Counted from the first letter of the stretch, positions 2,554 to 62,935 are shown. The stretch is DNA of 64,000 nt from Candidatus Kaiserbacteria bacterium (GCA_026396675.1 JAPLWI010000014.1:376-64375), one strand, 5' to 3'. Translations and numbers: made by a program. The notes: generated by a model from the letters alone, not told the origin.

Positions 2554-3424
2554 GTTTGCGGAGCCACGCTTTTTGGCGGCGCGCATACTGCCAGAGCTTT
2601 GCCGAAAGCGTGTGTAGTAAAAGTGTCAAACACTCGGTGTTTGACACTTTGTTCTTGTTGAGGAATTCGCCAATGATTTTGTATTCAAGACCGAGTTCGT
2701 TAATTCGTTCGTCGCCATATTTTTCGCGTATGGTGCGGACTTCTTCAATAAGCCCGCGATCAAAGGCACTCGCAAGCCGTGCATCAATTCGTGCTCGTAG
2801 CTCTTCTTTTGGCGGATCAATAACAATCCACTTCGAGCAGTAGCGAGATTCCGAGCCAAACGAGGGACGAACAGGGACTTTTCCTTTTGTATCAATAATT
2901 TCTAACGCGCGGATGAGTCGGCGACGATTTTGTGGGTCGAGTTCAGAGGCGCGGCGCGCGTCCGCAGAACGGACGCGCGTGGACAATTCTTCTGTTGAAA
3001 GTTTTTCAAGTTCAGCACGAAATGCTGGATTCACGTCAATTTCGGGAATGGGACGCAGAAGTGCGTCAAAATAAAAATGCGTTCCACCGACAAGAATCGG
3101 TAGTTTCCCACGTTTCGAAATATCTTCAATTAAACGTGCCGCATCTGTAACGAAATCACCAGCAGAATAGATCTCATTCACATCGTGGATATCAATAAGA
3201 TGATGTGGCACCCCGCACATTTCTTCGGTTGTTATCTTTTCCGTACCAATATCGAGACCACGATACACTTGCCGCGAGTCCACAGAAATTATTTCTCCAA
3301 TGAAGGGTTTCGGAAATCCTTCACCTGATGAAGGATTTCCGAAACCCTTCAAAGCGATCTCAACCGCCAGCGCAGATTTACCCGAGGCAGTCGGCCCCAC
3401 GATGCAAAGAATATGTGTCGCCAT
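2516..3424 (-). CDS. miaA: tRNA dimethylallyltransferase MiaA
   Basis: P-loop CIVGPTASGKS plus SVDSRQVYRGLDIGT motifs. Start reset to MATHIL (3424) because the longer ORF (to 3469) would run into tRNA-Leu. Carries an in-frame palindromic insertion (GFGNPSSGEGFPKP). Confidence 0.85.
   Translation of the reverse strand: MATHILCIVGPTASGKSALAVEIALKGFGNPSSGEGFPKPFIGEIISVDSRQVYRGLDIGTEKITTEEMCGVPHHLIDIHDVNEIYSAGDFVTDAARLIEDISKRGKLPILVGGTHFYFDALLRPIPEIDVNPAFRAELEKLSTEELSTRVRSADARRASELDPQNRRRLIRALEIIDTKGKVPVRPSFGSESRYCSKWIVIDPPKEELRARIDARLASAFDRGLIEEVRTIREKYGDERINELGLEYKIIGEFLNKNKVSNTECLTLLLHTLSAKLWQYARRQKAWLRKLNLVTSSHQDRS
3305..3347. repeat. Palindromic in-frame insertion element, copy A (diverged), inside miaA
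   Basis: GGGTTTCGGAAATCCTTCACCTGATGAAGGATTTCCGAAACCC. About 84% identical to copy B. Encodes GFGNPSSGEGFPKP in the miaA frame. Confidence 0.7.
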
Positions 3425-3428
3425 ACTG

Positions 3429-3510
3429 TGCTGAAGGTGGGAGTCGAACCCACAACCCTTGCGGGACACGATTTTGAGTCGTGCGCGTATACCAATTCCG
3501 CCACTTCAGC
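3429..3510 (-). tRNA. trnL: tRNA-Leu (anticodon CAA), type II with long variable arm
   Basis: Acceptor GCTGAAG/CTTCAGC, anticodon stem CACGA/TCGTG with loop CTCAAAA, long variable arm, T-loop TTCGACT. No encoded CCA. Confidence 0.75.
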
Positions 3511-3567
3511 GCTACAATGCACAATACCATTTCACTACATTATTTTCATCATGGTAAAATTACTTCT

Positions 3568-4548
3568 ATGAATGATGATGCGGGCTATGTACCGACCAAG
3601 TACGATTCGATTTTTTGGATTGATGTCGAGCGCATACAGCCAAATCCATATCAACCGCGGCGCGAGTTCAGTGAAGAAGGTCTTACATCGCTCGCTGAGA
3701 GCATTCGCCAATATGGAGTGCTACAGCCGCTCGTCGTAAGCCGCACTGATGTAGAAAAGCCAGAAGGCGGTCTCGAGAGTTTGTATGAACTCATCGCTGG
3801 TGAACGACGTCTGCGCGCTTCTCGTCTCGCCGGTCTCAAACAAGTGCCAGTCGTGATTCGACATGGCGATAACAACCTCACGAAGCTAGAACTCGCCATC
3901 ATCGAAAATCTTCAGCGGGAAGACCTCAATGCTATTGACCGCGCGAAAGCGCTCAGAAAACTCATCGAGGACTTCGGTATTTCACACGCCGAATGCGCCG
4001 CGAAAATCGGTAAGAGTCGCGAATATGTGTCTAACTCACTTCGTCTTCTTTCTTTACCGGAACACATGCAGAATGCTGTTGTTGGGAAGGAAATAAGCGA
4101 AGGTCATGCGCGTGCGCTTCTCGCTCTCCACGATCGTCCAGAAGAACTCGAAACACTTTTTAAAGAAATCGTCTTAAAGAAATTGCCAGTTCGCGCAGTT
4201 GAACGCATCGCGCGCTCTATCGCGCAGGAGCGCGTGCGCAAATATCATCGTAAAACGCCTGAGATGGTAGAACTTGAAAAAACGCTTACAGAGACGCTTG
4301 GTACGCGAGTCATCATCGAAACCAATAATGCTGAAGAGGGTGGTCGCCTGCTTATTGATTTTTTCTCTCCAGACGATCTATCGGCACTCGCTGCGTCACT
4401 CGCGGCGCACCCGATTTCTGAATCGGGTGCGCCGTCCTCCGAAGCTTCAGCGAAGGAGGACCAATTACTACCTGACCCCGTTCCGCCAGCAGCACCAGAA
4501 GAGTCCGATGACGATGAATTATATTCAGTAAGTGGTTTTACGATTTAA
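3568..4548 (+). CDS. parB: Chromosome partitioning protein ParB/Spo0J
   Basis: ParB box IAGERRLRASRLAG. HTH region. Start set at MNDDAGY to clear tRNA-Leu. Confidence 0.85.
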   Translation: MNDDAGYVPTKYDSIFWIDVERIQPNPYQPRREFSEEGLTSLAESIRQYGVLQPLVVSRTDVEKPEGGLESLYELIAGERRLRASRLAGLKQVPVVIRHGDNNLTKLELAIIENLQREDLNAIDRAKALRKLIEDFGISHAECAAKIGKSREYVSNSLRLLSLPEHMQNAVVGKEISEGHARALLALHDRPEELETLFKEIVLKKLPVRAVERIARSIAQERVRKYHRKTPEMVELEKTLTETLGTRVIIETNNAEEGGRLLIDFFSPDDLSALAASLAAHPISESGAPSSEASAKEDQLLPDPVPPAAPEESDDDELYSVSGFTI

Positions 4549-6133
4549 TTTTCAGAGGTTTCTTTTTCTTTTTTTGTAATCTCGCTGGTTCGCTCATACC
4601 AAGCGCGGCGCGGATATGCCTCCGCGCGAGTGAGGTACGTGCAATTTCAAGCCACTTCGACGAAGGATGTGCGGCATCGCGTCGTATAATTTCAACAACC
4701 TCGCCATTATTTAATTGTGTATCAAACGAAACAAGTTTTCCGTTTACCTTCGCGCCTTGAATGTGATTCCCAAGATCGCTATGTATCGCATAAGCGAAAT
4801 CAATTGGCGTTGATGCTGCGGGTAAATCAACAACATCACCTATTGGGGTAAAGACGAACACGCGATGCGAGAAAAAATCCTCCCTCAAACCCTCTACGAA
4901 TTCTTCAGATCCAGCAACTTCCGCATGCGCTTCAGCGAGCTCGGCGAGCCACAACGGAACTTTTACAGGATCTTTTGTTCCATTTTCTTTTCCGGAAACC
5001 TTCATGAGTGATGGGATGAGCGAGCGAACCCAAGAAAAAGAAAGCGACGAGAACCGATTTTTTTGAACGTCTTTTCCAAGTTTTTCAATTCCTTTACCGA
5101 GTTGTTTATAGGACATGTGTGACGCGATGCCGAATTGTGCACGGCGATGCATTTCTTCAGTGCGAATCTGAATTTCAACAATGCCCGCTTCAGGTGTCAC
5201 AACCGTCGTGTGCAGCGATTGATAGCCGTTCGGTTTAGGGAAGGCGATATAATCCTTAAACTCGCCTGGCAATGGTCGATACATCGCATGCACGACGCCA
5301 AGTGTGGTGTAACAATCCTCAATTTCCGGCACAATAATACGGAGCGCGGCAATGTCGTGAATGAGCGTTATGTCATCATGTTTCCTTTTAAGTTTTTGAT
5401 GCAAGCTCCACAGACCTTTCATGCGAATGTCAGTGCGGAATGTCACGAGATCTTTCTTCGCTAATTCTCGTTTCAATTCTTTTTGTACTTTTGCGAGACC
5501 GTCTTCGGTCTCTTTCGTCTTCAATTTAAGCATTTCGGCGGTATGTCGTGCAGCATCAGGATCTACGAATGGAAATGAAGAGTCCTCTAGATTGCGTTTC
5601 ATCCTTCCCATACCGAGTCGGTCGGCAATGGGAGCATAAATTTCTAGTGTTTCGAGCGCGATACGACGACGTTTCGGTTCAGACACATATTCAAGCGTCT
5701 GCACATTGTGTTTTCTATCTGCAAGCTTCACGATGAGCACGCGAATATCACTAGCCGTCGCAACAAGTAGCCGACGAAGCGATTCGGCATGGCGTTCGGC
5801 GCCTCTATATTTATGTTTACCGAGTTTCGTTACGCCATCAACAATGAAGAGCACTTCCTTCCCGAATTCCTTTTCAATTTCTTCGCGCGTGGTACAACCG
5901 TCTTCAACTGCATCATGGAGAAGTCCTGCAACAATCGTCGTTGCATCCATTCCGTATTCAGCGAGGATTTTTGCCGTTGCCGCCGGATGAATAAAATATG
6001 GTTCACCCGAATAACGCATTTTATTCTCATGCGCTTTCTTGGAGAACTCGTATGCCTTCTCGATAAGCGCAATGTCCTCGGATGAAGGGTTCTTCATCTC
6101 GCCGATAATCTCCTTAACGGTCGTCAGCGCCAT
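4538..6133 (-). CDS. rel: Bifunctional (p)ppGpp synthetase/hydrolase, RelA/SpoT family (short form)
   Basis: HD domain (LLHDAVEDG), RelA/SpoT synthetase region and TGS domain. 531 aa, so the ACT domain is probably absent. Confidence 0.85.
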   Translation of the reverse strand: MALTTVKEIIGEMKNPSSEDIALIEKAYEFSKKAHENKMRYSGEPYFIHPAATAKILAEYGMDATTIVAGLLHDAVEDGCTTREEIEKEFGKEVLFIVDGVTKLGKHKYRGAERHAESLRRLLVATASDIRVLIVKLADRKHNVQTLEYVSEPKRRRIALETLEIYAPIADRLGMGRMKRNLEDSSFPFVDPDAARHTAEMLKLKTKETEDGLAKVQKELKRELAKKDLVTFRTDIRMKGLWSLHQKLKRKHDDITLIHDIAALRIIVPEIEDCYTTLGVVHAMYRPLPGEFKDYIAFPKPNGYQSLHTTVVTPEAGIVEIQIRTEEMHRRAQFGIASHMSYKQLGKGIEKLGKDVQKNRFSSLSFSWVRSLIPSLMKVSGKENGTKDPVKVPLWLAELAEAHAEVAGSEEFVEGLREDFFSHRVFVFTPIGDVVDLPAASTPIDFAYAIHSDLGNHIQGAKVNGKLVSFDTQLNNGEVVEIIRRDAAHPSSKWLEIARTSLARRHIRAALGMSEPARLQKKKKKPLKIKS

Positions 6134-6178
6134 AGGAGCACACTATACACCCTAGTAGAAATAATTTCTAATTTTCAT

Positions 6179-8572
6179 CTATTTCAAATACTCTGCTGCT
6201 TCGGCGGGAGTGAGAAAATCGGCGGAGACGGAAGTGGGAAGATAAATACGGCGCAGGCCTTTTTTCAAAAATAGCCCTTGTTTAGATTTATAGAGCGAGA
6301 GCATTTTGCCGGTACGCGGATGTTTACCAATTTCTTTTACGAGCTCAACGCCTTTCGTTTGTTTTTTTGGCTCGGCGAGAAGAGCGAGCGCTTCATCAAG
6401 CGTGATGGTGTATGGATCTTTCCCGCTTGCAACTTTTATGGAACGAAACTCGCCATCACTGCCGACATACGGACCGAAACGACCGGTTGATGCGAATACC
6501 GGCTTGCTAGTTGAAGGATGCATTCCTAATTCGCGTGGTAGCGAAAGATATTTAAGAGCGTCGGCAAGTGTTACTTGTGCGATATCGATACCTTTTGGAA
6601 TGCTCGCGCGCTTCGCCGCCATTCGCGGTCTGCCGCGTTTGGCGGCGCCCCGCGGAGCCTTGGCGGAGTGGGGTTCTTTTTTTGGCACCTTCTCACCTTC
6701 GCTCGTCGGCATCTCAACATACGGTCCGAATCTTCCTGTCTTTACATAAATCGGTACGCCGGTTTCAGGGTGATTTCCGATTGGTTCGTCACCTTTTAAT
6801 TCAGTACCTTCTTCGGTTCGTGCACCGAGACATTTTGGATAATGTTTGCAACTCATGAAAACGCCGCCGCGACCAAGTTTGAATTCCATTGGGCCTTCGC
6901 AAATTGGGCATGGGAATTCAGGAGAAGTATCACCGAGGGAAGTCGCTTTTGGCAATTTATCTTTCGCATGCACCGCTTTCTCAAACGGACCGTAGAATGC
7001 CGAAAGTGTTTCCGTATACCCGCGCTCACCGCGCGCGATTTCATCTAGTTCATTTTCCATTTCCGCAGTAAAAGTATCACTTACATATTCGGGGAAGTGT
7101 TCCTCAAGCCACCCAGAAACGACCATACCGGTCGCTGTCGGTTTCAATGCACGAACAATCTTTTCGACATAACCACGATCCTGAATCGTTTTCATAATCG
7201 AGGCATATGTAGAAGGACGCCCGATGCCGCGCTTTTCAAGTTCTTTAATAAGACCGGCTTCGGTGTAACGATTTGGCGGTTCAGTTTGTTTTTCTTCTGC
7301 ACCGAGCGATAGAAGCGTTAGCGGATCACCGACAGAAAGTTTCGGCAATTCTATATCTTCACTGCGTGCTTTCGTATCGAGAGCAAGCCATCCGGGGAAG
7401 AGGAGTCGTGAACCAGTTGCAGAAAAAAGAGGAATATCGCGGTCGGCTTTTGCAGTAATGCTTGTACGCATAATTCGCGCGGAAGCCATTTGCGAAGCGA
7501 GCGCACGTGTGCGAATTAATTCATACAATCGTTCTTCGTCCGGTGTTGAACCGGCATGCGCGTGGCTAGAATCAGTTGGGCGAATCGCCTCATGTGCTTC
7601 TTGCGCATTTTTGCTCGTAGTTTTATATGCACGCACATGAAGATATTCTTTGCCAAATTCTTTTTCAACGATACCCGCCATTTTTGCGACGGCTTCTTTA
7701 GCGAGATTCACCGAGTCGGTACGCATATAAGTAATGTGTCCTGCCTCATAGAGTTTTTGCGCGGCGCGCATTGTTCGCGAAGGAGCGAAACCGAGTCGTG
7801 TTGAGGCGACTTGTTGCAATGTTGATGTGGTAAACGGTGGACGAGGATTACGATCCTCGGCTTTTTCTGTAACATCAGCCACATTCCATCTCGCGCTTCT
7901 TCCGATTTGCACAATCCGGTCTGCTTCTTCTTTTGTCTTCGGTTGCTCGCTACAAGTCGCCGCTATATCGCCGGATTTTGATTTGAAGAGCGCAGAAAGC
8001 ACGAAATAAATTTCTGGCACGAACGCCTTAATTTCTCGTTCGCGTTCAGCTAGGATGCGAAGTGCAGGTGATTGCACGCGCCCGGCCGACAACCCGTACC
8101 GCACTTTTTTCCAAATAAGACCGGAAAGATCGTAGCCGACAATGCGATCCAATACGCGCCGCGCTTCTTGCGCGCGGCGCAAATCCTCGTCAATCGCACG
8201 AGGGTGTGCAAGGGCATCTTCAATAGCATCCTTCGTGATTTCGTGAAAGACGACCCGTTTCGATTTTTTCAAATTCGCGACTTCCTTAATGTGCCAAGCG
8301 ATTGCCTCGCCTTCGCGGTCTGGGTCAGTTGCTAGATAAATTTCATCTGCTTTTGTCGCCGCGTGTTTTATTTTTTCAATCACTTCGTGCTTGCCGGCTG
8401 AAACGACATAGCGCGGAATAAAGCCGCCTTCAATATCGACGGCGTCTTTATTTGATTTCGGCAAATCGCGCACATGTCCGACCGAAGCAAGAACGGTATA
8501 GTCCTTGCCCAGGTAATGCCCTATAGTGCGCGCCTTGGTTGGCGACTCAACGATAAGTAATTTGTGGGTCAC
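6179..8572 (-). CDS. topA: DNA topoisomerase I
   Basis: Toprim N-terminus MTHKLLIVESPTKARTI. C-terminal zinc ribbons (CPICEGPMEF...C, SCKHYPKC). 797 aa. Confidence 0.95.
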   Translation of the reverse strand: MTHKLLIVESPTKARTIGHYLGKDYTVLASVGHVRDLPKSNKDAVDIEGGFIPRYVVSAGKHEVIEKIKHAATKADEIYLATDPDREGEAIAWHIKEVANLKKSKRVVFHEITKDAIEDALAHPRAIDEDLRRAQEARRVLDRIVGYDLSGLIWKKVRYGLSAGRVQSPALRILAEREREIKAFVPEIYFVLSALFKSKSGDIAATCSEQPKTKEEADRIVQIGRSARWNVADVTEKAEDRNPRPPFTTSTLQQVASTRLGFAPSRTMRAAQKLYEAGHITYMRTDSVNLAKEAVAKMAGIVEKEFGKEYLHVRAYKTTSKNAQEAHEAIRPTDSSHAHAGSTPDEERLYELIRTRALASQMASARIMRTSITAKADRDIPLFSATGSRLLFPGWLALDTKARSEDIELPKLSVGDPLTLLSLGAEEKQTEPPNRYTEAGLIKELEKRGIGRPSTYASIMKTIQDRGYVEKIVRALKPTATGMVVSGWLEEHFPEYVSDTFTAEMENELDEIARGERGYTETLSAFYGPFEKAVHAKDKLPKATSLGDTSPEFPCPICEGPMEFKLGRGGVFMSCKHYPKCLGARTEEGTELKGDEPIGNHPETGVPIYVKTGRFGPYVEMPTSEGEKVPKKEPHSAKAPRGAAKRGRPRMAAKRASIPKGIDIAQVTLADALKYLSLPRELGMHPSTSKPVFASTGRFGPYVGSDGEFRSIKVASGKDPYTITLDEALALLAEPKKQTKGVELVKEIGKHPRTGKMLSLYKSKQGLFLKKGLRRIYLPTSVSADFLTPAEAAEYLK

Positions 8573-8611
8573 GTTATTAACTCATAGCGCGTATACCTAT
8601 ATATGGTCAAG

Positions 8612-12105: not shown

Positions 12106-12907
12106 CTTGCCCGGTAAGGGCACAGGGCTCGCTGCGCGACGACGCCGAAGGCGTCGTCGCTGGGTTATCGCATTTGCCATACTACTCTTGTTCATGCTTG
12201 CTGCGGCTGTGTACGGTCTCCAACAAAATGCCGTGCGTATTTCTGAAGTAAAGATATTCGGTTCAGGGCAATCACTCTCGACTGCAGTTCTTGCAGAGAT
12301 GCAAGGAAAATATTTCGGCATCGTGCCGCGCAATTCCATATTCTTTTTCCCCGCCTCAAAAATTCGCGCCAATCTACTTAAAGAAAATATAGATCTGGTC
12401 GCTGTTTCAATCTTTCGAAATGGACTTACTGGGCTTTCGATTAAAGTGGACTATCGCGTTCCAATTGCGCGTTGGTGCGGTTCGACACCGGACATCACGA
12501 GGTTGAACCTCGTGTCAGATTGTTACCTTTTTGACACAAAAGGATTTATTTTTGGTACAACCAGTGCGATGTCTCCCATAAATTCTTTTTTCGTGTACGA
12601 ATCAGTACCGCAGGCGGATTCTCCAATCGGTTTAACACTTCCAAATGCGGAAAAACTTCCTGCCGCTTTTAATTTCGCACGGCAACTCCAATCGTTCGGC
12701 TCGCCGGTTTCTTCAATCGTTTTCCGTGCGGATGAAGTTGACGATTATATCGCAAGCGGTACGCGCGTCACCTATCTGCTCGGCGATGAACAAAATGCGT
12801 TTACCGCTCTTATTTCTGCGCGCGACGATCTAAATCTCTCTGACGGTTCGATTCAATACGTTGACCTGCGATTCAATGGGAAGGTGTATCTAAAAAAGAA
12901 AGAATGA
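12071..12907 (+). CDS. ftsQ: Cell division protein FtsQ/DivIB-like (POTRA domain)
   Basis: Arg-rich cytoplasmic tail, single TM segment, and a POTRA-like region ending YRVPIARW (compare E. coli FtsQ YVPIARW). The start is uncertain: ATG at 12071 overlaps serS by 35 nt, and an in-frame TTG sits at 12107. Confidence 0.6.
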   Translation: MSGRISSAERSSLPGKGTGLAARRRRRRRRWVIAFAILLLFMLAAAVYGLQQNAVRISEVKIFGSGQSLSTAVLAEMQGKYFGIVPRNSIFFFPASKIRANLLKENIDLVAVSIFRNGLTGLSIKVDYRVPIARWCGSTPDITRLNLVSDCYLFDTKGFIFGTTSAMSPINSFFVYESVPQADSPIGLTLPNAEKLPAAFNFARQLQSFGSPVSSIVFRADEVDDYIASGTRVTYLLGDEQNAFTALISARDDLNLSDGSIQYVDLRFNGKVYLKKKE

Positions 12908-13902
12908 CATCATTTTGGAATCAATTGCCGAAACCATTTTTTGCGATGGCGCCGATGAAAGATGTGACCGACGTAGCATTCCGCACCGTCGTTGCTCGGC
13001 GCGGGAAACCAGATGTGTTTTGGACAGAATTTGTGTCGGCAGATGGTCTTTCCCATGCTGTGCCTTCGCTTTTACGAGATTTACAATTCAATAAAGAAGA
13101 ACACCCTATCGTTGCGCAGATATTCTCTAGCAAGCCGGAGATGATTGCATACGCGACGAAACTAGTTGCGCAGTTGGGATTTGACGGAGTTGACCTCAAT
13201 ATGGGATGTCCAGACCGTGCAATTGAGAAGCAGGGCGCGGGTGCCGCGCTGATGAAAAATCCTAAACTCGCTGTTGAAATCATCAGAGCGGCAAAAGAGG
13301 CAAGCGATTTACCAGTGTCGGTTAAAACGCGTGTTGGCTACAGTAAAGAGTCACTAGACGAGTGGTTGCCAATTCTTCTTGAAGCAGAACCAGCCGCGAT
13401 TACGATTCACCTGCGTACACGAAAAGAATTGTCGCTCGTTCCAGCCGATTGGGAATTGATGAAAAAGGCAGTAGCAATCCGTAATCGCATCAATCCGAAC
13501 GTGTTACTCATCGGCAATGGCGATGTTGGAAGTTTAGAAGAAGGGAGGCGGCTTGCCGCAGAGACCGGATGCGATGGAATAATGATTGGTCGCGCAGTAT
13601 TCGGCAATCCGTGGGTATTCGAGCGCATTTCAGGACTTCGTAAATCCTCCTCTGAATTTGGATTTACGAAGTCCCAACATTCCGAACATGGGCTAGATGA
13701 AAAATTAGAAGCGCTTCTCGAACTCGCCCAAGAATTTGAAAAAATAACTCCGCCCAAAAACTTTTCAATTCTCAAAAAACACATCAAAGCATTCGTCACC
13801 GGTTTCTCCGGCGCCGCCGAACTGCGTGCGAAATTGATGATGGCGAATAACGCTACTGAACTGAAGGGATTGATAGAAATGGAAAAGGGCGCTCATCAAT
13901 AA
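12904..13902 (+). CDS. dus: tRNA-dihydrouridine synthase (Dus family)
   Basis: TIM-barrel Dus motifs (MAPMKDVTDVAFR, DLNMGCPDRAIEKQGAGAALM). Confidence 0.8.
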   Translation: MTSFWNQLPKPFFAMAPMKDVTDVAFRTVVARRGKPDVFWTEFVSADGLSHAVPSLLRDLQFNKEEHPIVAQIFSSKPEMIAYATKLVAQLGFDGVDLNMGCPDRAIEKQGAGAALMKNPKLAVEIIRAAKEASDLPVSVKTRVGYSKESLDEWLPILLEAEPAAITIHLRTRKELSLVPADWELMKKAVAIRNRINPNVLLIGNGDVGSLEEGRRLAAETGCDGIMIGRAVFGNPWVFERISGLRKSSSEFGFTKSQHSEHGLDEKLEALLELAQEFEKITPPKNFSILKKHIKAFVTGFSGAAELRAKLMMANNATELKGLIEMEKGAHQ

Positions 13903-27302: not shown

Positions 27303-28328
27303 ATGTCTTTCTTTTCTCCAAAACTCGGCATTGACCTAGGGACAACAAATATCCTTGTGTTCGTGCCCGGCAAGGGTGTTGTAATAAATGAGCCGTCAGT
27401 TGTTGCGGTAAGCAAAACGCGCGGTGCCCATGGCGGCAATAAGATCCTAGCCATCGGTGCGGAGGCGAAGAAAATGATTGGCCGTACTCCAGACGATATC
27501 ATCGCATATCGTCCGATGAAAGACGGTGTTATCGCTGACTATCGTATTACCGAAGCGATGCTCCATTATTTTATGAAGAAAGCGCTCGGTCATAATCCTT
27601 TTAAGCCAACAGTACTTATTTCAGTTCCAGCCGGCGTTACTTCAACAGAGAAGCGCGCTGTCATCGAAGCGGCGCTGAAGGCCGGCGCGAAAAATGCGTT
27701 CGTTGTGAAAGAACCGATACTTGCCGCAATCGGTGCAGGCATTCCTATTCACGAACCAATGGGGCGTATGGTTGCTGATATCGGTGGCGGTACAATTGAT
27801 GTAGCGGTGATATCTCTCGGTGGTATCGTTGCTTCAACATCAGTAAAGTGCGCGGGTGATCGTCTTGATCGCGCGGTCATTGATCACATAAAAAAACAGC
27901 ATAATCTTGCTATCGGTGACAAGACCGCAGAGGAATTAAAAATAAGAATCGGCGCGGCCGTGCCGATGAATGAAGAACTTTCAATGCCAGTCAAAGGACG
28001 AGATCTTTTATCCGGTCTTCCACGTACTGTTGATCTCTCGACAAATGATATGGTACAGGCAATGACGCGCGAATTGCGCGAAATGACACAAGCGATTCGC
28101 AAAGTGTTACAAGATACGCCGCCAGAACTTGCTGCCGACATTATTGATAACGGCATCATTCTCACAGGCGGCTCCTCACAGCTGCGTCAGATGACAGAGC
28201 TAGTGCATCGCCGTACTGGCGTTATCGCGAAACTTGCGCAAGACCCATATTATTGCGTTGCGCGCGGCACCGGCATCGCACTGAAGCATTTGGATACCTA
28301 TCAGAAAAGAATTTTAGCGAAACAATGA
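27303..28328 (+). CDS. mreB: Rod shape-determining protein MreB (paralog 1)
   Basis: Actin-fold motifs (LGIDLGTTN, DIGGGT, GGSSQL). Confidence 0.9.
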   Translation: MSFFSPKLGIDLGTTNILVFVPGKGVVINEPSVVAVSKTRGAHGGNKILAIGAEAKKMIGRTPDDIIAYRPMKDGVIADYRITEAMLHYFMKKALGHNPFKPTVLISVPAGVTSTEKRAVIEAALKAGAKNAFVVKEPILAAIGAGIPIHEPMGRMVADIGGGTIDVAVISLGGIVASTSVKCAGDRLDRAVIDHIKKQHNLAIGDKTAEELKIRIGAAVPMNEELSMPVKGRDLLSGLPRTVDLSTNDMVQAMTRELREMTQAIRKVLQDTPPELAADIIDNGIILTGGSSQLRQMTELVHRRTGVIAKLAQDPYYCVARGTGIALKHLDTYQKRILAKQ

Positions 28329-29092
28329 TAACATCCCTCGACAAAACTCGGAACCTTCGGCATCATGCGTTTGTAATAGAGGCAGAAGCGGAGGAGGGGA
28401 TTGAAGTAGCGCAGAGGTGGGCGAGTGAAGAGCTCGGAATTAGTGCAAAAAATAATCCTGACATTGTCGTGTTGCGTTACGGGCTTTTCTCGGTTGCCGA
28501 CGCCCGACGTGTCCTAGAGACCGCCGCAAGCGCGCCATTCGCTGGCGAGAATAAAGTACTTATCATCGCTGCGAGCCGCGCATATCACGAGGCGCAGAAT
28601 GCACTCCTAAAACTTTTTGAAGAACCACCGCGGAACACATTTATTTTTTTCATATTACCATCGCTTGGTGGGCTACTGCCGACCTTACGTTCGCGCGTTC
28701 AAATTTTTGATGTTAAGGGTTTCGGAAACCCATCATCAGATGATGGGTTTCCGAAACCCATCATTTCAGAAGCAGCGATGGAGTTTATGAAGGCGAGCAA
28801 AGAAAAACGCAGTGCGATAATTAAGAAGCTCACAAGCGGGAGAGACGAAGAAGAAAAACGCGAACTGCGCGATGAGGCGATCGCGATTCTGAACGGCGTT
28901 GAAGCGATTGCATATAAAAAATACGGGTCTACGAGACCCGTAATTTCTGAACTTCTGTCGGACATTCAGATTCTGCGCGGGTATCTCTATGACCGTTCGG
29001 CGCCTGTGAAAATGATTCTCGAACATCTTTCACTCGTTATTCCCGCCTCGCCGAAGACGGCGAGTCGAGGCGGGCTAAAGGATTTGCTATAA
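28325..29092 (+). CDS. holB: DNA polymerase III delta-prime subunit
   Basis: Start overlaps the mreB stop (ATGA). KLFEEPP and TLRSRVQ clamp-loader motifs. Carries the in-frame palindromic insertion GFGNPSSDDGFPKP. Confidence 0.75.
   Translation: MITSLDKTRNLRHHAFVIEAEAEEGIEVAQRWASEELGISAKNNPDIVVLRYGLFSVADARRVLETAASAPFAGENKVLIIAASRAYHEAQNALLKLFEEPPRNTFIFFILPSLGGLLPTLRSRVQIFDVKGFGNPSSDDGFPKPIISEAAMEFMKASKEKRSAIIKKLTSGRDEEEKRELRDEAIAILNGVEAIAYKKYGSTRPVISELLSDIQILRGYLYDRSAPVKMILEHLSLVIPASPKTASRGGLKDLL
28717..28759. repeat. Palindromic in-frame insertion element, copy B, inside holB
   Basis: GGGTTTCGGAAACCCATCATC-A-GATGATGGGTTTCCGAAACCC. Perfect 21-bp arms around a 1-nt centre. Confidence 0.8.
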
Positions 29093-47045: not shown

Positions 47046-48107
47046 ATGTCAGTACTCACTATAGGTATTCTAGTTATCGTTCTTCTCATTATTCAGGGCA
47101 TCGGTCTCTATTTCATCCTTCTTCGTCGGCGAGAAGCGCCGCAGGAAAGCGGGGGAATGATTCTTCTCCAACAGCAATTGCAAAATCTTGAAAAGACGCT
47201 TGATGCTCGCGTTTCTGAATCGTCGCGCGCGATGCAGGAGAATTCTCATCGGCAGTTTTCAGAATCGTCGCGACTCATTAAGGAAATCACCACAGAACTC
47301 ACGTCAGTAAAAGAGATTGGTAGGCAGACGCAGACATACGCCGAACAACTTCAATCGCTTCAGGACCTGCTGAAGAATCCAAAACAGCGCGGCATTCTCG
47401 GCGAGTATTATTTGGAGACGGTATTGCGAAATGTGATGTCACCGGACGATTATCGAATCCAATACGCTTTCAAAAATGGCGAAATAGTAGACGCAGTCAT
47501 AGTCATTAATAAAAAGCTGGTTCCCGTTGATTCAAAATTCTCGCTTGATAATTACAACCGTTTCGTGAGTACGCAAGTGGGAACGCCGGAACGTGCAGCC
47601 GCGGAGAAGGCCTTCGTAAACGATCTGAAACTACGCATTACCGAGACCGCGAAATATATCCGACCAGAAGAAGACACAATGGATTTCGCATTTATGTTCA
47701 TCCCGTCTGAAGGTATCTATTATGATCTCCTGACCAACCAAATTGGAGGCAGTGCCGAAGAAGAGAATCTGATCCAGCGCGCGGCGAGCAAGTATAAAGT
47801 CATTATTGTTTCGCCGACATCGTTCCTCGCATATCTCCAAACAGTGATGCAGGGATTAAAAGCCCTTCAGATAGAAAAGAAAGCAGTTGATATACAGAAG
47901 CGGGTTGGAGAGCTCGGGAAGCATATCGGCGCGTATGAAGAATTTTATAAAAAGCTCGGTACTTCGCTCGGCACTTCAATAAGCCATTACAACGCGGGTT
48001 ATAAAGAACTCGGAAAGATAGATAAAGATGTGTACCGTATCGCGGAAAGTAAAATCGGTATCGAGCCGGAACTTCTAGATAAGCCAATGGAGGGTATTGA
48101 CAATTAG
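47046..48107 (+). CDS. rmuC: DNA recombination protein RmuC
   Basis: N-terminal TM helix, long coiled coil, and the RmuC C-terminal nuclease-like domain (FMFIPSEGIYYDL). Confidence 0.85.
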   Translation: MSVLTIGILVIVLLIIQGIGLYFILLRRREAPQESGGMILLQQQLQNLEKTLDARVSESSRAMQENSHRQFSESSRLIKEITTELTSVKEIGRQTQTYAEQLQSLQDLLKNPKQRGILGEYYLETVLRNVMSPDDYRIQYAFKNGEIVDAVIVINKKLVPVDSKFSLDNYNRFVSTQVGTPERAAAEKAFVNDLKLRITETAKYIRPEEDTMDFAFMFIPSEGIYYDLLTNQIGGSAEEENLIQRAASKYKVIIVSPTSFLAYLQTVMQGLKALQIEKKAVDIQKRVGELGKHIGAYEEFYKKLGTSLGTSISHYNAGYKELGKIDKDVYRIAESKIGIEPELLDKPMEGIDN

Positions 48108-57018: not shown

Positions 57019-57024
57019 ACAAAG

Positions 57025-57050: not shown

Positions 57051-57100
57051 AATTTTTAGCCAGATTTGCGGAAATGTTCTAAACAAGATAAGATGGTTTT

Positions 57101-57641: not shown

Positions 57642-57644
57642 TTT

Positions 57645-57917
57645 CTAAACAACATCAACAACTTTTTTGGCGATAACGTGACCAGTAAAATTTGTCTTGC
57701 GTCGTGTGCGAAAAGCAACTTTGCCAGCGGCAATTGAGAACAATGTGTGATCGCGGCCGACACGTACATTCCTTCCTGCTTCAATCTTTGTGCCGCGCTG
57801 GCGGACGATAATCATACCTGGGCGAACTGTTGCGCCGTCAGCGAGCTTAACCCCGAGATATTTCGGGTTTGAATCGTTTAGGTTTTTCACCGATCCTCCA
57901 GCTTTTGTATGTGCCAT
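57645..57917 (-). CDS. rpmA: 50S ribosomal protein L27
   Basis: MAHTKAGGS...RQRGTK...G.NVG matches bL27. Confidence 0.95.
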
Positions 57918-57936
57918 AGTGGTATAGTTTTACCTG

Positions 57937-58317
57937 ATGACTATAGCAGAAGCTCGTGAGAAATGCAAAGGTTTTATGACGCGTATTCCGCGCGATGTTC
58001 TCATTATCGCGGTGCTTATCCTCGCCTCATTGGCGAGCTTTGGACTGGGATATTTAGCCGCCCCAATGCCGGAAGTTGCCTGTGCATTGAGTCAGCCAGT
58101 TGGGGCAGGGAATACGGAAGCTCTCAACGGAGAAGCAACATCGGCCCATTCGACAAGCTCAGGGCAAGCAGTAGGGAAGTATGTGGCATCAAAAAATGGC
58201 ACGAAATACTATCTAACATCATGCGCGGGAGCGAATAAGATTTCAGATGCGAATAAAGTGTGGTTTGCATCTGCAATTGAAGCAAAAGCGGCTGGCTATA
58301 CGCCAGCCGCTGTCTGA
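57937..58317 (+). CDS. Hypothetical membrane-anchored protein
   Basis: One TM helix. C-terminal KYH-like segment (NGTKYYLTSC...VWFASAIEAKAAGYTPA). Confidence 0.35.
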   Translation: MTIAEAREKCKGFMTRIPRDVLIIAVLILASLASFGLGYLAAPMPEVACALSQPVGAGNTEALNGEATSAHSTSSGQAVGKYVASKNGTKYYLTSCAGANKISDANKVWFASAIEAKAAGYTPAAV

Positions 58318-58900
58318 GTTTATCGAGGGCTTTGATATTATCAGCCGATATGGTCTCGCAGTTTCTTTTTTTGGTAGCGCCCGCACATCGTTTGAAAGTG
58401 ATGTTTATAAACATGCGGAAGAACTCGCCGCTCGTTTGGCGAAAAAAGGTTTTTCAGTAATTACCGGAGGCAGTTCTGGTGTTATGCAGGCCGCGAACAA
58501 AGGCGCGTTTGAATCAGGTGGTGTTTCGGTTGGATTAAATATTAATTTACCAGATACACAGGCCTTTAATCCGTACCTCACCGAACAGTTCGGATTCGAC
58601 CACTTCTTTGTGCGGAAGGTAATGCTCACATACGCTTCCGAGGTTTATGTTTATTTTCCTGGAGGATTTGGAACACTCAATGAATTTTTTGAAATTGTAA
58701 CACTTGTGCAAACCAAGAAGATTCGGAAAGTACCCCTCATCCTCTTCGGTAGGGAATACTGGGGACCCCTGCTCTCTTTCATTGAAAAAGTTCTATATGA
58801 AAAACATACGGCAATAAATAAAGAAGATATGAATTTGTATAAGTTAGTTGATTCGGTTGATGAAGCATACGAGTACATTATCGCGAACGTCTCTTGTTAA
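58247..58900 (+). CDS. LOG family protein (TIGR00730 Rossmann-fold nucleotide-binding / cytokinin riboside 5'-monophosphate phosphoribohydrolase-like)
   Basis: SVITGGSSGVMQAANKGA and PGGFGTLNE motifs. The ORF start overlaps the upstream gene by about 70 nt, and no internal ATG is available after 58317. Confidence 0.75.
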   Translation: MRIKCGLHLQLKQKRLAIRQPLSEFIEGFDIISRYGLAVSFFGSARTSFESDVYKHAEELAARLAKKGFSVITGGSSGVMQAANKGAFESGGVSVGLNINLPDTQAFNPYLTEQFGFDHFFVRKVMLTYASEVYVYFPGGFGTLNEFFEIVTLVQTKKIRKVPLILFGREYWGPLLSFIEKVLYEKHTAINKEDMNLYKLVDSVDEAYEYIIANVSC

Positions 58901-58916
58901 TAGGGAGTAGCTAGTT

Positions 58917-59036
58917 TAGGCGAGATCTGCCTAACGATAAACGTCGCACAATATATCTTTTACGACACCATGGTGTCGTAAAAGATAGGCAACATTTTGC
59001 AACAGCAGAAAGCACTGTCGCAAGAATGTTGCCTCC
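58917..59036. repeat. Cluster of three strong hairpins between LOG (+) and M23 peptidase (-)
   Basis: TTAGGC-GAGATC-TGCCTAA. A perfect 15-bp stem TCTTTTACGACACCA/TGGTGTCGTAAAAGA. AGGCAACATT...AATGTTGCCT, a 10-bp stem with a 28-nt loop. Confidence 0.55.
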
Positions 59037-59041
59037 CTGCC

Positions 59042-60370
59042 CTATAGATACGATAACGGATTCAAATATGCAGTTAACGTTGCCACCGGCATCGTTGCAT
59101 TTGCACATCCAGTGGATGCCCCACGGAATTGTTTAAGAGTCATAATTTCGGTACCTTCAGATGCATAAACGCCATAATGCAGATGCGGCCCAGTCGCATA
59201 GCCAGTCATACCCGAGAGGCCGATTATTTGTCCAACACTCACCTGCTGCCCTTTCCCAACATCGATGTTAGAGAGGTGAGCGTAAAGTGTGCTAATGCCG
59301 TTATTGTGTTTGATCATTACCCATTTGCCATAAGAATAACAACCTTTCACCAGATCTGTATTGCCAGTTGCCAAGATAGTACCACCACGCGATGCATATA
59401 TCGGCGTACCGATTGGCGCGGCGACATCAATTCCAGGATGTCCTCCGCTGTTGTACACTTGCGGATTTGCGGTTGCGAACGGAGTTGTACCGAAGTATTG
59501 AGAAATGCAAAAAAGATTTCCAAACGTACTTTTTCTTTGTGAACAATTAAACATGAACGCTGCGCTGAATGGCCAGGTAAGAACGCCTGATCCAACTTTA
59601 GGTAAAAGACCTGGATGTACGATTAAGTTCAATTGGCCCTGAAGGTCGGAAAGTTCTTGTTCAAATGATTTCTCCGCCGCCTTCTTCTGCGCGATTAACT
59701 TCTGATAACTTGATTCTTGATTTTTCGTATCTGAAAGAAGTTTCTGTTGCGCCGTCTTACTAGCATCCACAGATCGTTTCTGTAGAGTCAAATCATTTTT
59801 AAGCGATATAAGTTGCGTCTTTGCAGCAGTTACGGCATCACGGTCGATAGTTAATACTGTACGAACAGTTCGAAGATTGTCAATATTGTTTGAGAGTGCT
59901 CGATTAAACTGTATCGCCTTGTCAGTTTCTTGCCACGCCTCGCCAAGTGAGTCCGAAGAAATAAGTTCCGTGATGAGCGGTGTCTGTTCATTTTCGGCAA
60001 TACTCCGGAGTGCTTTTGAAATCGCGTCTTGGTTCTCAATAATAGATGTTTCTTTATTGCCAATAGAAAGGGTAAGTTGTTGTATTTGTAAATTTGCCGA
60101 AGCAATCTTATTTTGAGTTACTTGAATCTGTGTTGCTAATTGTTTTTGAGAAAGGGTAAGCGAACTGATTGTTGACTGGAGTGTATTTTTTTTCGTTCCA
60201 AGCGCATTAAGTTGATCTTGAAACGCAGCGATGTCCGCCTTAAGTGAGTCAAGTTGTCGATTATTTGCTTCAATTTTCGATTGAATATCTGATGCCGCAT
60301 CGGCATACGCAAATCTCGGTACGCCGAGAACGATACATACAAAGAATATAAAAAGCCCAATATGCTTCAT
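59042..60370 (-). CDS. M23 family peptidase with an N-terminal coiled-coil (EnvC-like) region
   Basis: Signal peptide, long coiled coil, and the LytM-type active site HPGIDVAAPIGTPIYA...GPHLHYGV. Confidence 0.85.
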   Translation of the reverse strand: MKHIGLFIFFVCIVLGVPRFAYADAASDIQSKIEANNRQLDSLKADIAAFQDQLNALGTKKNTLQSTISSLTLSQKQLATQIQVTQNKIASANLQIQQLTLSIGNKETSIIENQDAISKALRSIAENEQTPLITELISSDSLGEAWQETDKAIQFNRALSNNIDNLRTVRTVLTIDRDAVTAAKTQLISLKNDLTLQKRSVDASKTAQQKLLSDTKNQESSYQKLIAQKKAAEKSFEQELSDLQGQLNLIVHPGLLPKVGSGVLTWPFSAAFMFNCSQRKSTFGNLFCISQYFGTTPFATANPQVYNSGGHPGIDVAAPIGTPIYASRGGTILATGNTDLVKGCYSYGKWVMIKHNNGISTLYAHLSNIDVGKGQQVSVGQIIGLSGMTGYATGPHLHYGVYASEGTEIMTLKQFRGASTGCANATMPVATLTAYLNPLSYL

Positions 60371-61728
60371 TAAGATAGTATAGCAATTGCCTTTCGTATT
60401 CGCGAAATCGTTTCTTCTTTACCGAGAATTGAAATGAGCGTGAATGGATCAGGCGAACGGTCTTGTCCGGAAAGAGCGTAACGAAGAGGCCAAAGCATGG
60501 CTCCCCTACCACCCTTTCCTTTTTCCTCTTCGGCGTCGGCGAGCGGCATAAGCGCGTTCTTGACTATCTCAGCTGATAAATCGTTAGGAAGGGCTTCTAT
60601 GGCCCCAGAAAGGCCTTCTAAGGCCGTTTTAGTCATATTTGGGCAATCATTCAGCTCCTTGGCGATGAGCTTATTCGGGTCAAGTGCGGGTTCATTAAAC
60701 AGACATGAAAGTTCGTTTGAAAGCATATCTTGTGCTTCTTGAAATGTCTTCGCGCGTTCCTTCAGAAGCGGCACGGCTTTCTTCAGAATTTCTGAATTGA
60801 GGGACTTCGTAAATCCATCATCTGATGATGGATTTACGAAGTCCAAACATGCAAGGAATTTTTCATCAGAAAGTTGCCGCATCCAATGCTGATTGACTGA
60901 AAGAAGTTTCGTTTCATCAAAGATGGCGCTTCCCTTCTGCACGCGCGAAAGATCAAATGCTTCAATAAGTTCTTTTTGCGAAAGATATTCACGATCATCA
61001 CCGGGATTCCAGCCGAGGAAAGAAAGATAATTGAGCATCGCTTCAGGCAAAAATCCTAGATCGCGGTATTCAGTCAATGCCTTTGCACCAGTGCGTTTTG
61101 AGAGCTTTGTGCGATCACTGCCGAGAATGAGCGGTAAATGCGCATACATTGGCGTAGTAAAACCGAGTGCACGCTGAATAAGAATTTGGCGTGGAGTATT
61201 TGAAATATGATCCTCTCCGCGAATAACATGTGTTACATTTTCATCCGCATCATCAACGACAACCGCGAAGTGAAACACCGCCTCATCAAAAGATCGCGCG
61301 ATGACAAAATCGCCGAGGTCGCTTACATCCATCGTTATATTGCCGCGAATAATATCCGTAAAAGAAACTGCACCACCAGGATTTCTGAAACGGATGACCT
61401 CTTCCCTATCGCCTGGATTTTTTGGCGTCTCTTTAGAAATATACGCACTATCATCTGCAACAAGTTTTTCAAGAAGCTCGCGATAACGTATTTTGTGTTC
61501 GCTCTGGCGATACTGTTGATCAGCGGCAAGATTAAGCCACGCAAGCGCCTCTTTAATATTTGATTCATATTCAGGTTTTGATCTTGCAGAATCAGTATCC
61601 TCTATGCGCAAAATAAATGAGCCACCGGAATGTCTCGCGAAAAGATATGCGAATACAGCTGTTCTGTAATTTCCGGCATGCAAGAGGCCAGTTGGTGAAG
61701 GTGCGAAACGGGTAACAAAATTGCTCAT
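60370..61728 (-). CDS. gltX: Glutamyl-tRNA synthetase
   Basis: FAPSPTGLLHAGNYRTA (HIGH) and KLSKR (KMSKS). Carries the in-frame palindromic insertion (DFVNPSSDDGFTKS). Confidence 0.9.
   Translation of the reverse strand: MSNFVTRFAPSPTGLLHAGNYRTAVFAYLFARHSGGSFILRIEDTDSARSKPEYESNIKEALAWLNLAADQQYRQSEHKIRYRELLEKLVADDSAYISKETPKNPGDREEVIRFRNPGGAVSFTDIIRGNITMDVSDLGDFVIARSFDEAVFHFAVVVDDADENVTHVIRGEDHISNTPRQILIQRALGFTTPMYAHLPLILGSDRTKLSKRTGAKALTEYRDLGFLPEAMLNYLSFLGWNPGDDREYLSQKELIEAFDLSRVQKGSAIFDETKLLSVNQHWMRQLSDEKFLACLDFVNPSSDDGFTKSLNSEILKKAVPLLKERAKTFQEAQDMLSNELSCLFNEPALDPNKLIAKELNDCPNMTKTALEGLSGAIEALPNDLSAEIVKNALMPLADAEEEKGKGGRGAMLWPLRYALSGQDRSPDPFTLISILGKEETISRIRKAIAILS
60802..60844. repeat. Palindromic in-frame insertion element, copy C, inside gltX
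   Basis: GGACTTCGTAAATCCATCATC-T-GATGATGGATTTACGAAGTCC. Identical to copy D. Confidence 0.8.
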
Positions 61729-62864
61729 GATTCGTGCGAAAGCGCAATTTCCAATACTCCGCGCGCGAGTACGCGCGCGGCATCTGGATCTGTAAATCCC
61801 TCAGCAGAAGCGCCCATACTCTTCATGAGTTTTGGATCATTAATAATGCGATGAATCTCGGAAATAAGGAGATGCGGTGTGAGATTTTCTTCTTCAATAA
61901 CGGCCGTAGCTCCCGTCTTTGCATAAGCATATGCATTACTGCGCTGGTCATGACTCACTGATTCTGGAATCGGGATGAGAATAGATGGCTTCTTCCAAAG
62001 GCCAATCTCTGCAATGCTGTTTGCTCCAGCTCGCGAAACGACGATATCCGCAACACCAGCCGCTCTCTGCAAAGCCATTTCTGAAAGATAATTAACAGGA
62101 TGATACCGACTCATATGTTGGTTCTTCGCGAGCACAACTTGCGCGACCGCTTCTACGTTCTTGAAATTAGCTTGTCCTGTTTGGTGAATGACATTTGCGA
62201 AAGAAACAAGATCCGGCAACGACGAAAGTATTGATTCATTTATGCGCGTCGAGCCCTGTGAGCCGCCGAGAATGAGAACGGCCGGTATGTCTTTTTCTAG
62301 TTCTAGATATTGTCGTGCGCCTTCGCTTTCAATTCGCATAAGCGCTTTACGAATCGGTATTCCAGTTCGCGCGATTTTATTTCTTATTTTTTTGGGAAAA
62401 TATTCAGCCGCACTTTCAAATGAAATAGCAATTTTTGTAGCAAATTTTGCAGCGAGTAAATTCGCACGACCCGGTTTAGCATCTGACTCATGGACAATAA
62501 TCGGAATACGAAGGAATCGTGCAGCAAGTACAACTGGCACGCTCCCATAACCGCCCTTAGAAACTACAACATCCGGATACAAGCGAAAGAGGACTATGAG
62601 CGCATACACTGTTCCGAAAAAAGTGACGAACGAATCGGTGACATTCCAAAATGAAAAATAACGGCGTATCTTCCCTGCCGGTATGCGTATAAACGATATT
62701 CTATTTTCAAACAGCGCTTTTTCGTCAAAAGGATTAGGCGCTAGATAATAGAGTTTTGGTGCTATGAGTCGCTCCTCGCGAACTAGGTCTTCAAGTGCCT
62801 CAGCAATCGCAATAATCGGGTAGAAATGTCCTCCGCTCCCTGCGCTCGTAAATGCGATAGTCAT
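61725..62864 (-). CDS. murG: Undecaprenyldiphospho-muramoylpentapeptide beta-N-acetylglucosaminyltransferase MurG
   Basis: IAFTSAGSGGHFYP and GGSQGS motifs. The start is set at MTIAF (62864). The longer ORF start (62912) is an ATGATG created by the centre of palindrome copy D. Confidence 0.9.
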   Translation of the reverse strand: MTIAFTSAGSGGHFYPIIAIAEALEDLVREERLIAPKLYYLAPNPFDEKALFENRISFIRIPAGKIRRYFSFWNVTDSFVTFFGTVYALIVLFRLYPDVVVSKGGYGSVPVVLAARFLRIPIIVHESDAKPGRANLLAAKFATKIAISFESAAEYFPKKIRNKIARTGIPIRKALMRIESEGARQYLELEKDIPAVLILGGSQGSTRINESILSSLPDLVSFANVIHQTGQANFKNVEAVAQVVLAKNQHMSRYHPVNYLSEMALQRAAGVADIVVSRAGANSIAEIGLWKKPSILIPIPESVSHDQRSNAYAYAKTGATAVIEEENLTPHLLISEIHRIINDPKLMKSMGASAEGFTDPDAARVLARGVLEIALSHES

Positions 62865-62892
62865 GATGTGAGTATTATACAGCAAGATGTTG

Positions 62893-62935
62893 GGACTTCG
62901 TAAATCCATCATCTGATGATGGATTTACGAAGTCC
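62893..62935. repeat. Palindromic element, copy D, intergenic between ftsW and murG
   Basis: Identical 43-nt palindrome to copy C. Lies between the ftsW stop (62944) and the murG start. Confidence 0.8.

Follow-up and report, generated by a model that had tools for sequence, protein, structure and literature searches.

For 25 years, palindromic repeats that sit in frame inside bacterial genes have counted as a textbook curiosity of Rickettsia. The Rickettsia palindromic elements (RPEs), about 150 bp long and comprising ten families, are restricted to Rickettsia; dispersed over a reduced genome, they lie in frame in unrelated housekeeping genes, add a conserved peptide, are thought to sit in tolerant parts of proteins and are not known to have a transposase of their own (Ogata et al. 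2000; PMC10969869). Here, we describe a family of palindromic elements in a 64,000-nucleotide stretch of DNA from a Candidatus Kaiserbacteria bacterium (GCA_026396675.1 JAPLWI010000014.1:376-64375; the whole stretch is hereafter called the window). The phenomenon recurs in reduced genomes, and the family is a much smaller, differently built counterpart of the RPEs, seated in many essential genes across the candidate phyla radiation (CPR). No CPR precedent was found in the literature searched, the coverage of which is incomplete.

The elements share with RPEs their dispersal over genes and spacers, in-frame open insertion and a stable hairpin (arms of 21-23 nt). Unlike RPEs, which measure about 150 bp and belong to Rickettsia (PMC10969869), they are 42-56 nt long (about 25 nt as singlets) and reside in the CPR, a separation by size and host. 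They differ further in their nested double-hairpin plan, in the near-perfect complementarity of their arms and in that the same loops are occupied again and again across many lineages. An earlier note on this DNA, made from the sequence alone, had likened the palindromes to RPEs and proposed a new mobile-element class. The likeness in behaviour stands, but an element of 42-56 nt in another phylum is not a member of the RPE family, and the proposed class is too strong for a small variant of in-frame palindromic repeats, whose double-hairpin plan the note had overlooked.

Closest in behaviour are the RPEs (PMC10969869), and closest in build are the singlets and doublets of repetitive extragenic palindromic (REP) sequences and REPINs (PMC3116915). 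The present family and the REPs/REPINs alike consist of a short hairpin unit that occurs singly or as an inverted doublet forming one long hairpin (PMC3116915), and both combine long persistence with compensating changes (PMC3116915, PMC3733652). REPs are extragenic, commonly reach copy numbers in the tens to hundreds, bear a conserved GTAG or CGTC tag at one end and are accompanied by a single-copy RAYT gene (PMC3116915, PMC3733652). The present family, by contrast, has neither tag in the consensus of 44 copies, its copies are mostly intragenic and in frame, and no RAYT- or IS200-like gene was found among ten Pfam-scanned open reading frames (ORFs) or, with a weak probe, in 930 kb of loci. 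The family thus departs from the defining features of RPEs in size and host and from those of REPs in tag, in extragenic position and, as far as these searches reach, in the RAYT gene.

The in-frame miniature inverted-repeat transposable elements (known as MITEs) and similar repeats, such as QMITE1 of Coxiella (PMC5896051), intragenic ERIC sequences and PARCEL (PMC2996958), are likewise small, non-autonomous and able to fuse in frame. These comparators are longer and have recognisable terminal repeats, often with target duplications, or are tandem coding repeats; unlike the MITEs, the present elements showed no target duplication or parent insertion sequence in the partial genomes searched. 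The double-hairpin elements of Allomyces are comparable mitochondrial units. The GC clusters of fungal mitochondria are also very short mobile palindromic units of compact genomes, intergenic and occasionally in frame (PMC4478555). Both are organellar and differ in sequence and host, and the comparison is one of analogy only.

Palindromic doublets in the window

A degenerate 33-nt pattern matched the window four times (copies A-D) and 100 dinucleotide-preserving shuffles of the window not once. Perfect hairpins with a stem of 10 bp or more number 10 in the window, compared with about 0.25 in codon-block shuffles. In total, the window holds five palindromic doublets (in miaA, dus, holB, gltX and the ftsW-murG spacer) and one related single hairpin (in holB). 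The earlier note had listed four palindromes, at 3305-3347, 28717-28759, 60802-60844 and 62893-62935; all are present, but a fifth at 13633-13674 and the single hairpin at 28921-28943 had been missed. As judged from translations, every genic copy in the window is in the host frame and free of stops, as had been claimed for those in miaA, holB and gltX. An inverted-repeat scan gave copy A arms of 23 nt around a 5-nt centre and copies B, C and D arms of 21 nt around a 1-nt centre, all 100% complementary. Folding energies of the five copies as single-stranded DNA range from -15 to -28 kcal/mol, and the z-scores lie between -7 and -12.

The family is built from a hairpin of some 23-25 nt, ATGNN-GGRYTTCGKAAAYCC-NNCAT, whose stem is about 10-11 bp long and whose loop is CGK. 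In the common form, a unit, a centre of 1-5 nt and an inverted unit make a perfect palindrome of 42-56 nt, with the flanked consensus (C)ATG-NN-GGRYTTCGKAAAYCC-NN-CAT-N-ATG-NN-GGRTTTMCGAARYCC-NN-CAT(G). Each half is near-palindromic by itself, giving a double hairpin, and the doublet can alternatively fold into one long hairpin. Lone half-units are found in genes and in spacers (L098 at 13148 and 13212, L051, L102, L105, L131 and window 28921-28943).

Copy A (3301-3351, core 3305-3347; GGGTTTCGGAAATCCTTCACCTGATGAAGGATTTCCGAAACCC) is a perfect 51-nt palindrome (23 + 5 + 23) in miaA (2516-3424, minus strand), the product of which is 100% identical to P0001, the MiaA of a Candidatus Kaiserbacteria metagenome-assembled genome (MAG). 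It is read on the minus strand as KGFGNPSSGEGFPKPF, with the core translation GFGNPSSGEGFPKP, and its DNA hairpin has a folding energy of -27.6 kcal/mol (z = -11.8). Copy B (28717-28759) is a perfect 43-nt palindrome in a holB-like gene for the DNA polymerase III delta' subunit (28325-29092, plus strand, start codon uncertain), which was recognised by an RSRVQ motif read in translation. The copy stands directly after the LRSRVQ (SRC) motif and encodes GFGNPSSDDGFPKP, and imperfect pairing around it reaches 28705-28771. The sequence that the earlier note quoted for its first subfamily fits copy B, but A, with its palindrome of 3301-3351, reads otherwise. The single half-unit hairpin in holB (28921-28943; ACGGGTCT-ACG-AGACCCGT) reproduces the family core GGGTTTACGAAACCC apart from a TCT/AGA change that is compensating, and encodes YGSTRPV; it occupies a variable HolB loop that holds a different hairpin in L055 and no hairpin in L134.

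Copy C is a 56-nt unit (60796-60851) with a perfect 43-nt core (60802-60844) in gltX (60370-61728, minus strand; product 100% identical to P0121, a glutamate-tRNA ligase from a Candidatus Kaiserbacteria MAG). Its peptide on the minus strand is DFVNPSSDDGFTKS, and the 56-nt unit reads (A)CLDFVNPSSDDGFTKSLN. Copy D (62889-62942, core 62893-62935) lies in the ftsW-murG spacer, 8 nt past the stop of a minus-strand gene (62944-63873) and about 28 nt ahead of the probable murG start near 62864. The cores of C and D agree at 43/43 positions, as the earlier note had observed; however, their flanks are unlike, so D is not a simple copy of C and the identity is, taken alone, a weak sign of recent mobility. 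Copy E (13633-13674) is a 42-nt element in a tRNA-dihydrouridine synthase-like (dus) gene (12904-13902, plus strand; GNPWVF motif read in translation). The arms, perfect over 15 nt, match those of C and D exactly, the 12-nt centre is non-palindromic, and the element encodes GLRKSSSEFGFTKS.

Since only one reading frame of the 43-nt form is stop-free, the other two containing TAA or TGA as read from the sequences, nearly every copy is read as GF[VG]NPS..GF[TP]K[PS]. The full peptide pattern is G/D-F-V/G-N-P-S-S-x-D/E-G-F-T/P-K-P/S, GFVNPSSDEGFTKP being a segment of the insert peptide, and copies with a 12-nt centre read GFRK[SP]..GFTK[PS]. The same peptide is obtained from either strand, as had been noted before.

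The arms are paired with great strictness. Over 18 core pairs in 44 distinct copies, about 99.7% of pairs are Watson-Crick and a single one is G-T, and six core pairs change on both sides (GC/AU, UA/CG, UA/GC, UA/AU), including at positions that the search pattern leaves free. The half-unit hairpin is looser, being 83% paired with many G-T and A-C pairs. The centre or loop is seen both ways round, even at one site: MiaA copies have TCAAA and TTTGA, and L029 and L082 have centres that are reverse complements of each other.

Distribution, orthologous sites and near-identical copies

The arm pattern TTCGKAAAYCC-N10-15-GGRTTTMCGAA was scanned against 185,579 species genomes (one per species), metagenome contigs and viral contigs. 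The species genomes yielded 37 loci, about 22 of them clearly family members, all in CPR MAGs (Paceibacterota, Kaiserbacteria, Ryanbacteria and bins labelled Saccharibacteria) or in MAGs labelled only 'bacterium'. Among 109 loci from metagenome contigs, about 40 belong to the family, and the remainder is mostly an unrelated repeat (TCCTTTCGGAAACCCACCCCTAAAATTTGGGTTTCCGAAACTC and variants; L043, L044, L047, L048, L050 and about 40 other JAAUYA01/JACCDR01 contigs) that is apparently non-coding and matches the arms by chance. The pattern had no match in the viral contigs, and a phage origin was rejected. The further copies that the earlier note had anticipated amount to about 60 sites in CPR (Paceibacteria-type) assemblies; they lie in spacers and in no fewer than 20 different host genes. 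Nearly all members sit within long open frames, and all genic copies are open in the frame of the host. Hosts identified by Pfam are TsaD, UvrA, UvrB (two sites), UvrC, Tgt, a transketolase, an S-adenosylmethionine methyltransferase, PolA, an epimerase, PheT, an HhH-GPD glycosylase, ATP synthase gamma, LeuS and Mur ligases, besides MiaA, HolB, GltX and Dus.

Near-identical units of 54-56 nt recur in unrelated genes of distant genomes. The reverse complement of copy C agrees at 56/57 nt with a copy in a transketolase gene (L007 and L028), including the non-symmetrical flanks CATGTTT and CTCAAT; the coding orientation there is opposite to that of C, and the GltX of the genome with L007 is only 75% identical to that of the window. 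Copy D agrees at 53/54 nt with a genic copy from another metagenome (L062), its flanks being unlike those of C. The repeated unit is thus longer than the element size of about 43 nt given before. The ftsW-murG spacer measures 81 nt in the window against 42-43 nt, free of the element, in the syntenic relatives L150 and L151, whose spacers are too diverged from the window for the edges of D to be aligned exactly. Near-identity of whole units across genes and genomes, together with the absence of D from syntenic relatives, is better evidence for mobility than the identity of C and D.

MiaA and GltX were each compared with their best 120 relatives. In MiaA, 17/120 carry the element, all at one position (AVEIAL[KRM]G-FxNPSSxxGFxKP-[FI]MGEIISVD); about 95 of the 120 read AVEEALxR-[NG]GEIISVD in its place, and seven have other short inserts at the site. 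Carriers have 51 nt where empty orthologues have the 9 nt for Ala-Arg-Asn, a net gain of 42 nt. Outside the loop, identity is 0.753 between carriers and 0.758 between carriers and non-carriers, and the nearest relatives of carriers are mostly non-carriers. DNA similarity specific to carriers is confined to the 15 nt left of the palindrome (0.84 vs 0.49), with none farther out. In an AlphaFold model of the window MiaA (mean pLDDT 83.5, where pLDDT is the predicted local distance difference test score), the insert (about residues 27-42) is a coil of pLDDT ~54 between a helix (16-26) and a strand (43-48), and the rest of the fold is confident; as predicted by this one model of one host, the site fits a tolerant loop. 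Among the listed hits, a precomputed match to PF01745 (IPT) is found on no MiaA carrier and on most non-carriers: the insert disturbs the domain annotation of MiaA. Inserts of this kind break Pfam matches and can mislead alignments and trees of CPR marker genes.

A protein-only test asked whether codon pairs can be reverse complements, scored out of 7 in 14-residue windows. Scores of 6-7/7 were reached by 0.05% of all such windows, nearly all in the MiaA and GltX loops. At least 30/120 GltX relatives have a mirror-codon segment at the same loop, in at least 12 arm versions (for example DFVNP/GFTKS, DIGSP/GLPMS, DVVRP/GRTTS, DIGCP/GHPMS, DLGGP/RPPRS and GVELP/GSSTP). Three GltX DNAs obtained independently of the pattern are perfect palindromes with quite different arms, the half-unit hairpin being retained. 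GltX pairs of 85-89% identity can differ in presence or absence, and then only a cassette of about 25-30 residues around the loop differs. One GltX (P0157, from the genome of L007 and L032) has a truncated insert, MDFVNPSLSIDSE, with the left arm only, and has the look of a form derived from the palindrome by deletion; in that genome the transketolase gene holds a full copy, the one that matches the window gltX copy at 56/57 nt.

The Dus site of copy E is occupied also in L006 and L110, and the HolB site of copy B also in L055, L134, L140 and L143. The earlier note had set an ancestral loop against insertion. The segment does recur at the same position in relatives, in TsaD and UvrB as well as in MiaA (17/120), GltX (at least 30/120), HolB and Dus, but most orthologues are without it and the carriers are scattered.

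Three sequence families each occur in more than one gene: the present one, a CGA-loop family and the KVSNTECLTL palindrome. The double-hairpin plan is common to at least two families besides the present one. The CGA-loop family follows the same plan of 23 nt, loop and 23 nt (ACTTGGGAGT-CGA-ACTCCCAAGT), encodes VELPSSxLGSST and was found in two genes of two genomes (L156 8182-8232, gltX; L155 10742-10791, MiaA loop 2). The KVSNTECLTL palindrome is one of two further hairpins in the window miaA (2620-2650 and 2955-2979). It is a perfect 31-nt palindrome with 14-bp arms (2620-2650, minus strand), occupies another variable loop of MiaA and is unrelated to the family; its peptide is also found in P0002, P0003, P0019, P0031 and P0034 and the same DNA in L040 (2819-2841), most MiaA relatives being without it. 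The hairpin at 2955-2979 encodes the conserved MiaA segment ARVRxADARRA and is perfect, with 10-16 bp, in 7/9 orthologue DNAs, including L008, L038, L039, L040, L153 and L155, the last with a compensating change; the other two have R[IV]RE[VQ]DPRRA at equal length. The case shows that a palindrome can form in coding DNA without insertion. The loops used by the family hold other hairpins elsewhere, MiaA loop 1 in L153 (GGCCCCAACGGGGCC) and HolB loop 2 in L055 (GGGAGAGTTTAACTCTCCC), and MiaA loop 1 of L154 holds an imperfect inverted repeat. L153 has another double hairpin in MiaA (7927-7967). Such loops are hot spots for inserts of the hairpin type.

Probable spread and maintenance of the palindromes

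We think it reasonably probable that the family consists of very small, non-autonomous, hairpin-forming repeats that have spread within and between Paceibacteria-type CPR genomes, are selfish in the manner of RPEs and REPINs, or else neutral, and have their arms kept symmetrical in place. Insertions would persist only in tolerant loops of essential proteins, and only where they are in frame and stop-free. As these genomes have almost no spacer DNA, most surviving copies would lie inside genes, and since only stop-free copies in tolerant loops survive, they would be read through as a common peptide. A resident copy would then be inherited over a long time while its sequence drifts, its arms being held exactly complementary by copying of one arm from the other at the DNA level, with template switching or hairpin-templated repair, accompanied by loop inversion, as the likely route. 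The strict Watson-Crick pairing, the two-sided changes and the near-absence of G-T point to such DNA-level copying rather than to RNA structure, because selection on an RNA helix usually leaves the wobble intermediates that are missing here. Strict two-fold and partial four-fold symmetry kept through sequence change point the same way. With its many sites, several families and carriers beside non-carriers, the material forms a comparative set for how selfish DNA becomes protein sequence.

Several observations, and limits of the sampling, weigh against this reading. No target-site duplication and no clean empty site were seen; a GAGATT direct repeat stands beside some MiaA copies and not beside all. 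MiaA carriers always have Ile or Leu for the Glu five codons upstream of the element, and Ile is found at this place in 1/95 non-carriers. One codon position is occupied in many lineages, and the protein hit lists are biased towards carriers, so that the scatter of carriers is suggestive and not proof. Arm identity is 0.82 between copies at the same site in different genomes and 0.75 between copies at different sites of the same genome (permutation p = 0.16), so that inheritance, or exchange, of resident copies proceeds site by site; this same-site likeness fits vertical inheritance over long times, or an exchange of alleles, better than it fits repeated fresh insertion. Codon identity of 85-100% inside the element against 40-55% outside was discounted because the loci had been found through the DNA pattern itself. 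The strict pattern yields few copies per genome (1-3 in the other species genomes). No transposase was found by Pfam in the ten window ORFs that could not be named from their translations, the other ~59 having been judged by eye, and a tblastn search of 930 kb of loci for the IS200 TnpA gave nothing significant with an approximate, weak probe. Within-genome homogenisation (concerted evolution) was considered and is unsupported, with no significant genome effect in the same comparison (0.75 vs 0.82, p = 0.16).

A bolder possibility, to which we give a good deal less credence, is that Paceibacteria-type CPR have a DNA-level regime that creates, perfects, extends and flips coding palindromes, for example through frequent template switching or an enzyme that recognises their shape and not their sequence. 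If such a regime exists, families of 51-nt double hairpins would supply new loops to proteins in general and could perhaps pass between lineages as allele cassettes; the palindromes would then be more than parasites, belonging to how genomes evolve or function throughout the lineage.

Alternatively, the palindromes could be old, vertically inherited features under selection for a DNA cruciform or double hairpin or for an mRNA hairpin, serving for instance in structure-specific binding, in pausing or processing between protein domains, or as a signal for recombination or uptake. Palindromy retained at orthologous sites across hosts with saturated synonymous sites would be expected of such a function, as would the two-sided arm changes and the retention of the half-unit hairpin with new sequences (GGACG..CGTCC, GACCTC..GAGGTC). 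The ARVRxADARRA hairpin, perfect in 7/9 orthologue DNAs and compensated in L155, speaks in the same direction, and several sites lie at domain linkers as read from the sequence, for example past the SRC motif of HolB and past GNPWVF of Dus. Yet most orthologues have no insert and are presumably functional, G-T pairs are nearly absent, unlike in selected RNA helices, and the element lies on either strand and in spacers with its sequence free to vary. An Rfam scan of the window returned five tRNAs and nothing at the elements, spacer copy D has no match to a consensus promoter or terminator, and no canonical parS was found. We know of no protein that binds the palindromes, and regard a selected structure as unlikely.

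More doubtful still is a purely local origin, in which non-mobile palindromes arise by inverted duplication or template switching of local coding sequence under a mutation bias that perfects palindromes. It would account for the ARVRxADARRA hairpin, which stands in place of the non-palindromic R[IV]RE[VQ]DPRRA with no change in length, for the different hairpins found in the same loops by lineage (MiaA loop 1 in L153 and L154, HolB loop 2 in L055) and for the flipped loops; an arm of L152 also has DLG in common with the loop of a non-carrier relative (P0224). It leaves unexplained the identity over 53-56 nt between copies in unrelated genes of distant genomes and the presence of three families each in more than one gene, and thus fails as the sole origin of this family. 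Template switching as the means by which resident copies are maintained is nevertheless probably part of the truth.

On much the same low footing we place the spread of short palindrome-bearing gene segments as allele cassettes, which would move to the same site by DNA uptake and homologous recombination and leave presence patchy and the site fixed; uptake, or escape from mismatch repair, may be helped by the palindrome. Carriers are indeed scattered among non-carriers in both MiaA and GltX, close pairs of GltX are alike except for a cassette of about 25-30 amino acids, and MiaA carriers have in common a site-specific 15-nt left flank and the change from Glu to Ile. Many hosts, moreover, serve genome maintenance (UvrA, UvrB, UvrC, PolA, HolB and a glycosylase). 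However, similarity is not raised more than 15 nt from the element, where longer recombination tracts would be expected, copies in new genes are not accounted for, and the hit lists favour carriers. Known uptake sequences are far denser than these elements, and there is no experimental link to competence.

Although multiple-displacement amplification can yield perfect palindromes and palindromes can confuse assemblers, an artefact of assembly or amplification from chimeric fold-back reads, which the earlier note had allowed for, is next to impossible, since the same elements stand at the same codon positions, in frame and with consistent variation, in independent assemblies (NCBI, ENA, JGI and Logan).

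Searches for a partner function and neighbouring features

The ten Pfam-scanned ORFs have HTH, SLT, EEP nuclease, NYN, RmuC and SET domains only. A search of the partial genomes for lone arms returned hairpin singlets only, with no arms bracketing a gene. A terminator or promoter role for copy D was considered and rejected, in the absence of a consensus match.

The family core GTTTCGKAAAC resembles the outer bases of parS, with different spacing, and parB starts at 3481 on the strand opposite to miaA, about 130 nt from copy A. The canonical 16-bp parS palindrome (TGTTNCACGTGAAACA, at most 2 mismatches) matched the window no more than chance would allow and was absent from 930 kb of loci. Given the differing spacing, the variable arms and the lack of a canonical parS for comparison, the idea of a parS-like role was dropped. 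Several loci carry parB and have no canonical parS, and the CPR hosts of the family may use another centromere sequence.

An RmuC-family gene lies at 47046-48107 on the plus strand (Pfam E = 1e-50). In E. coli, RmuC is said to restrict inversion at short inverted repeats, and the gene may be relevant to a palindrome-rich genome. Directly upstream of miaA is a tRNA gene (3429-3510, minus strand). It overlaps the longest ORF call for miaA, so the real start of miaA is the ATG near 3424.

A perfect 34-nt palindrome (TATCTTTTACGACACCA/TGGTGTCGTAAAAGATA) occupies the spacer after a LOG-family gene at 58954-58987; since no T-run follows, it is not a canonical terminator. Spacer palindromes near a LOG-family gene are also found at two related loci, L150 14657-14694 and L156 11399-11439, with the same outer arms as in the window (TATCTTTT..AAAAGATA) and different inner arms. 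Further perfect hairpins inside ORFs of the window, with stems of 10-14 bp, lie at 4403-4434 (in parB), 12136-12160 and 58287-58311.

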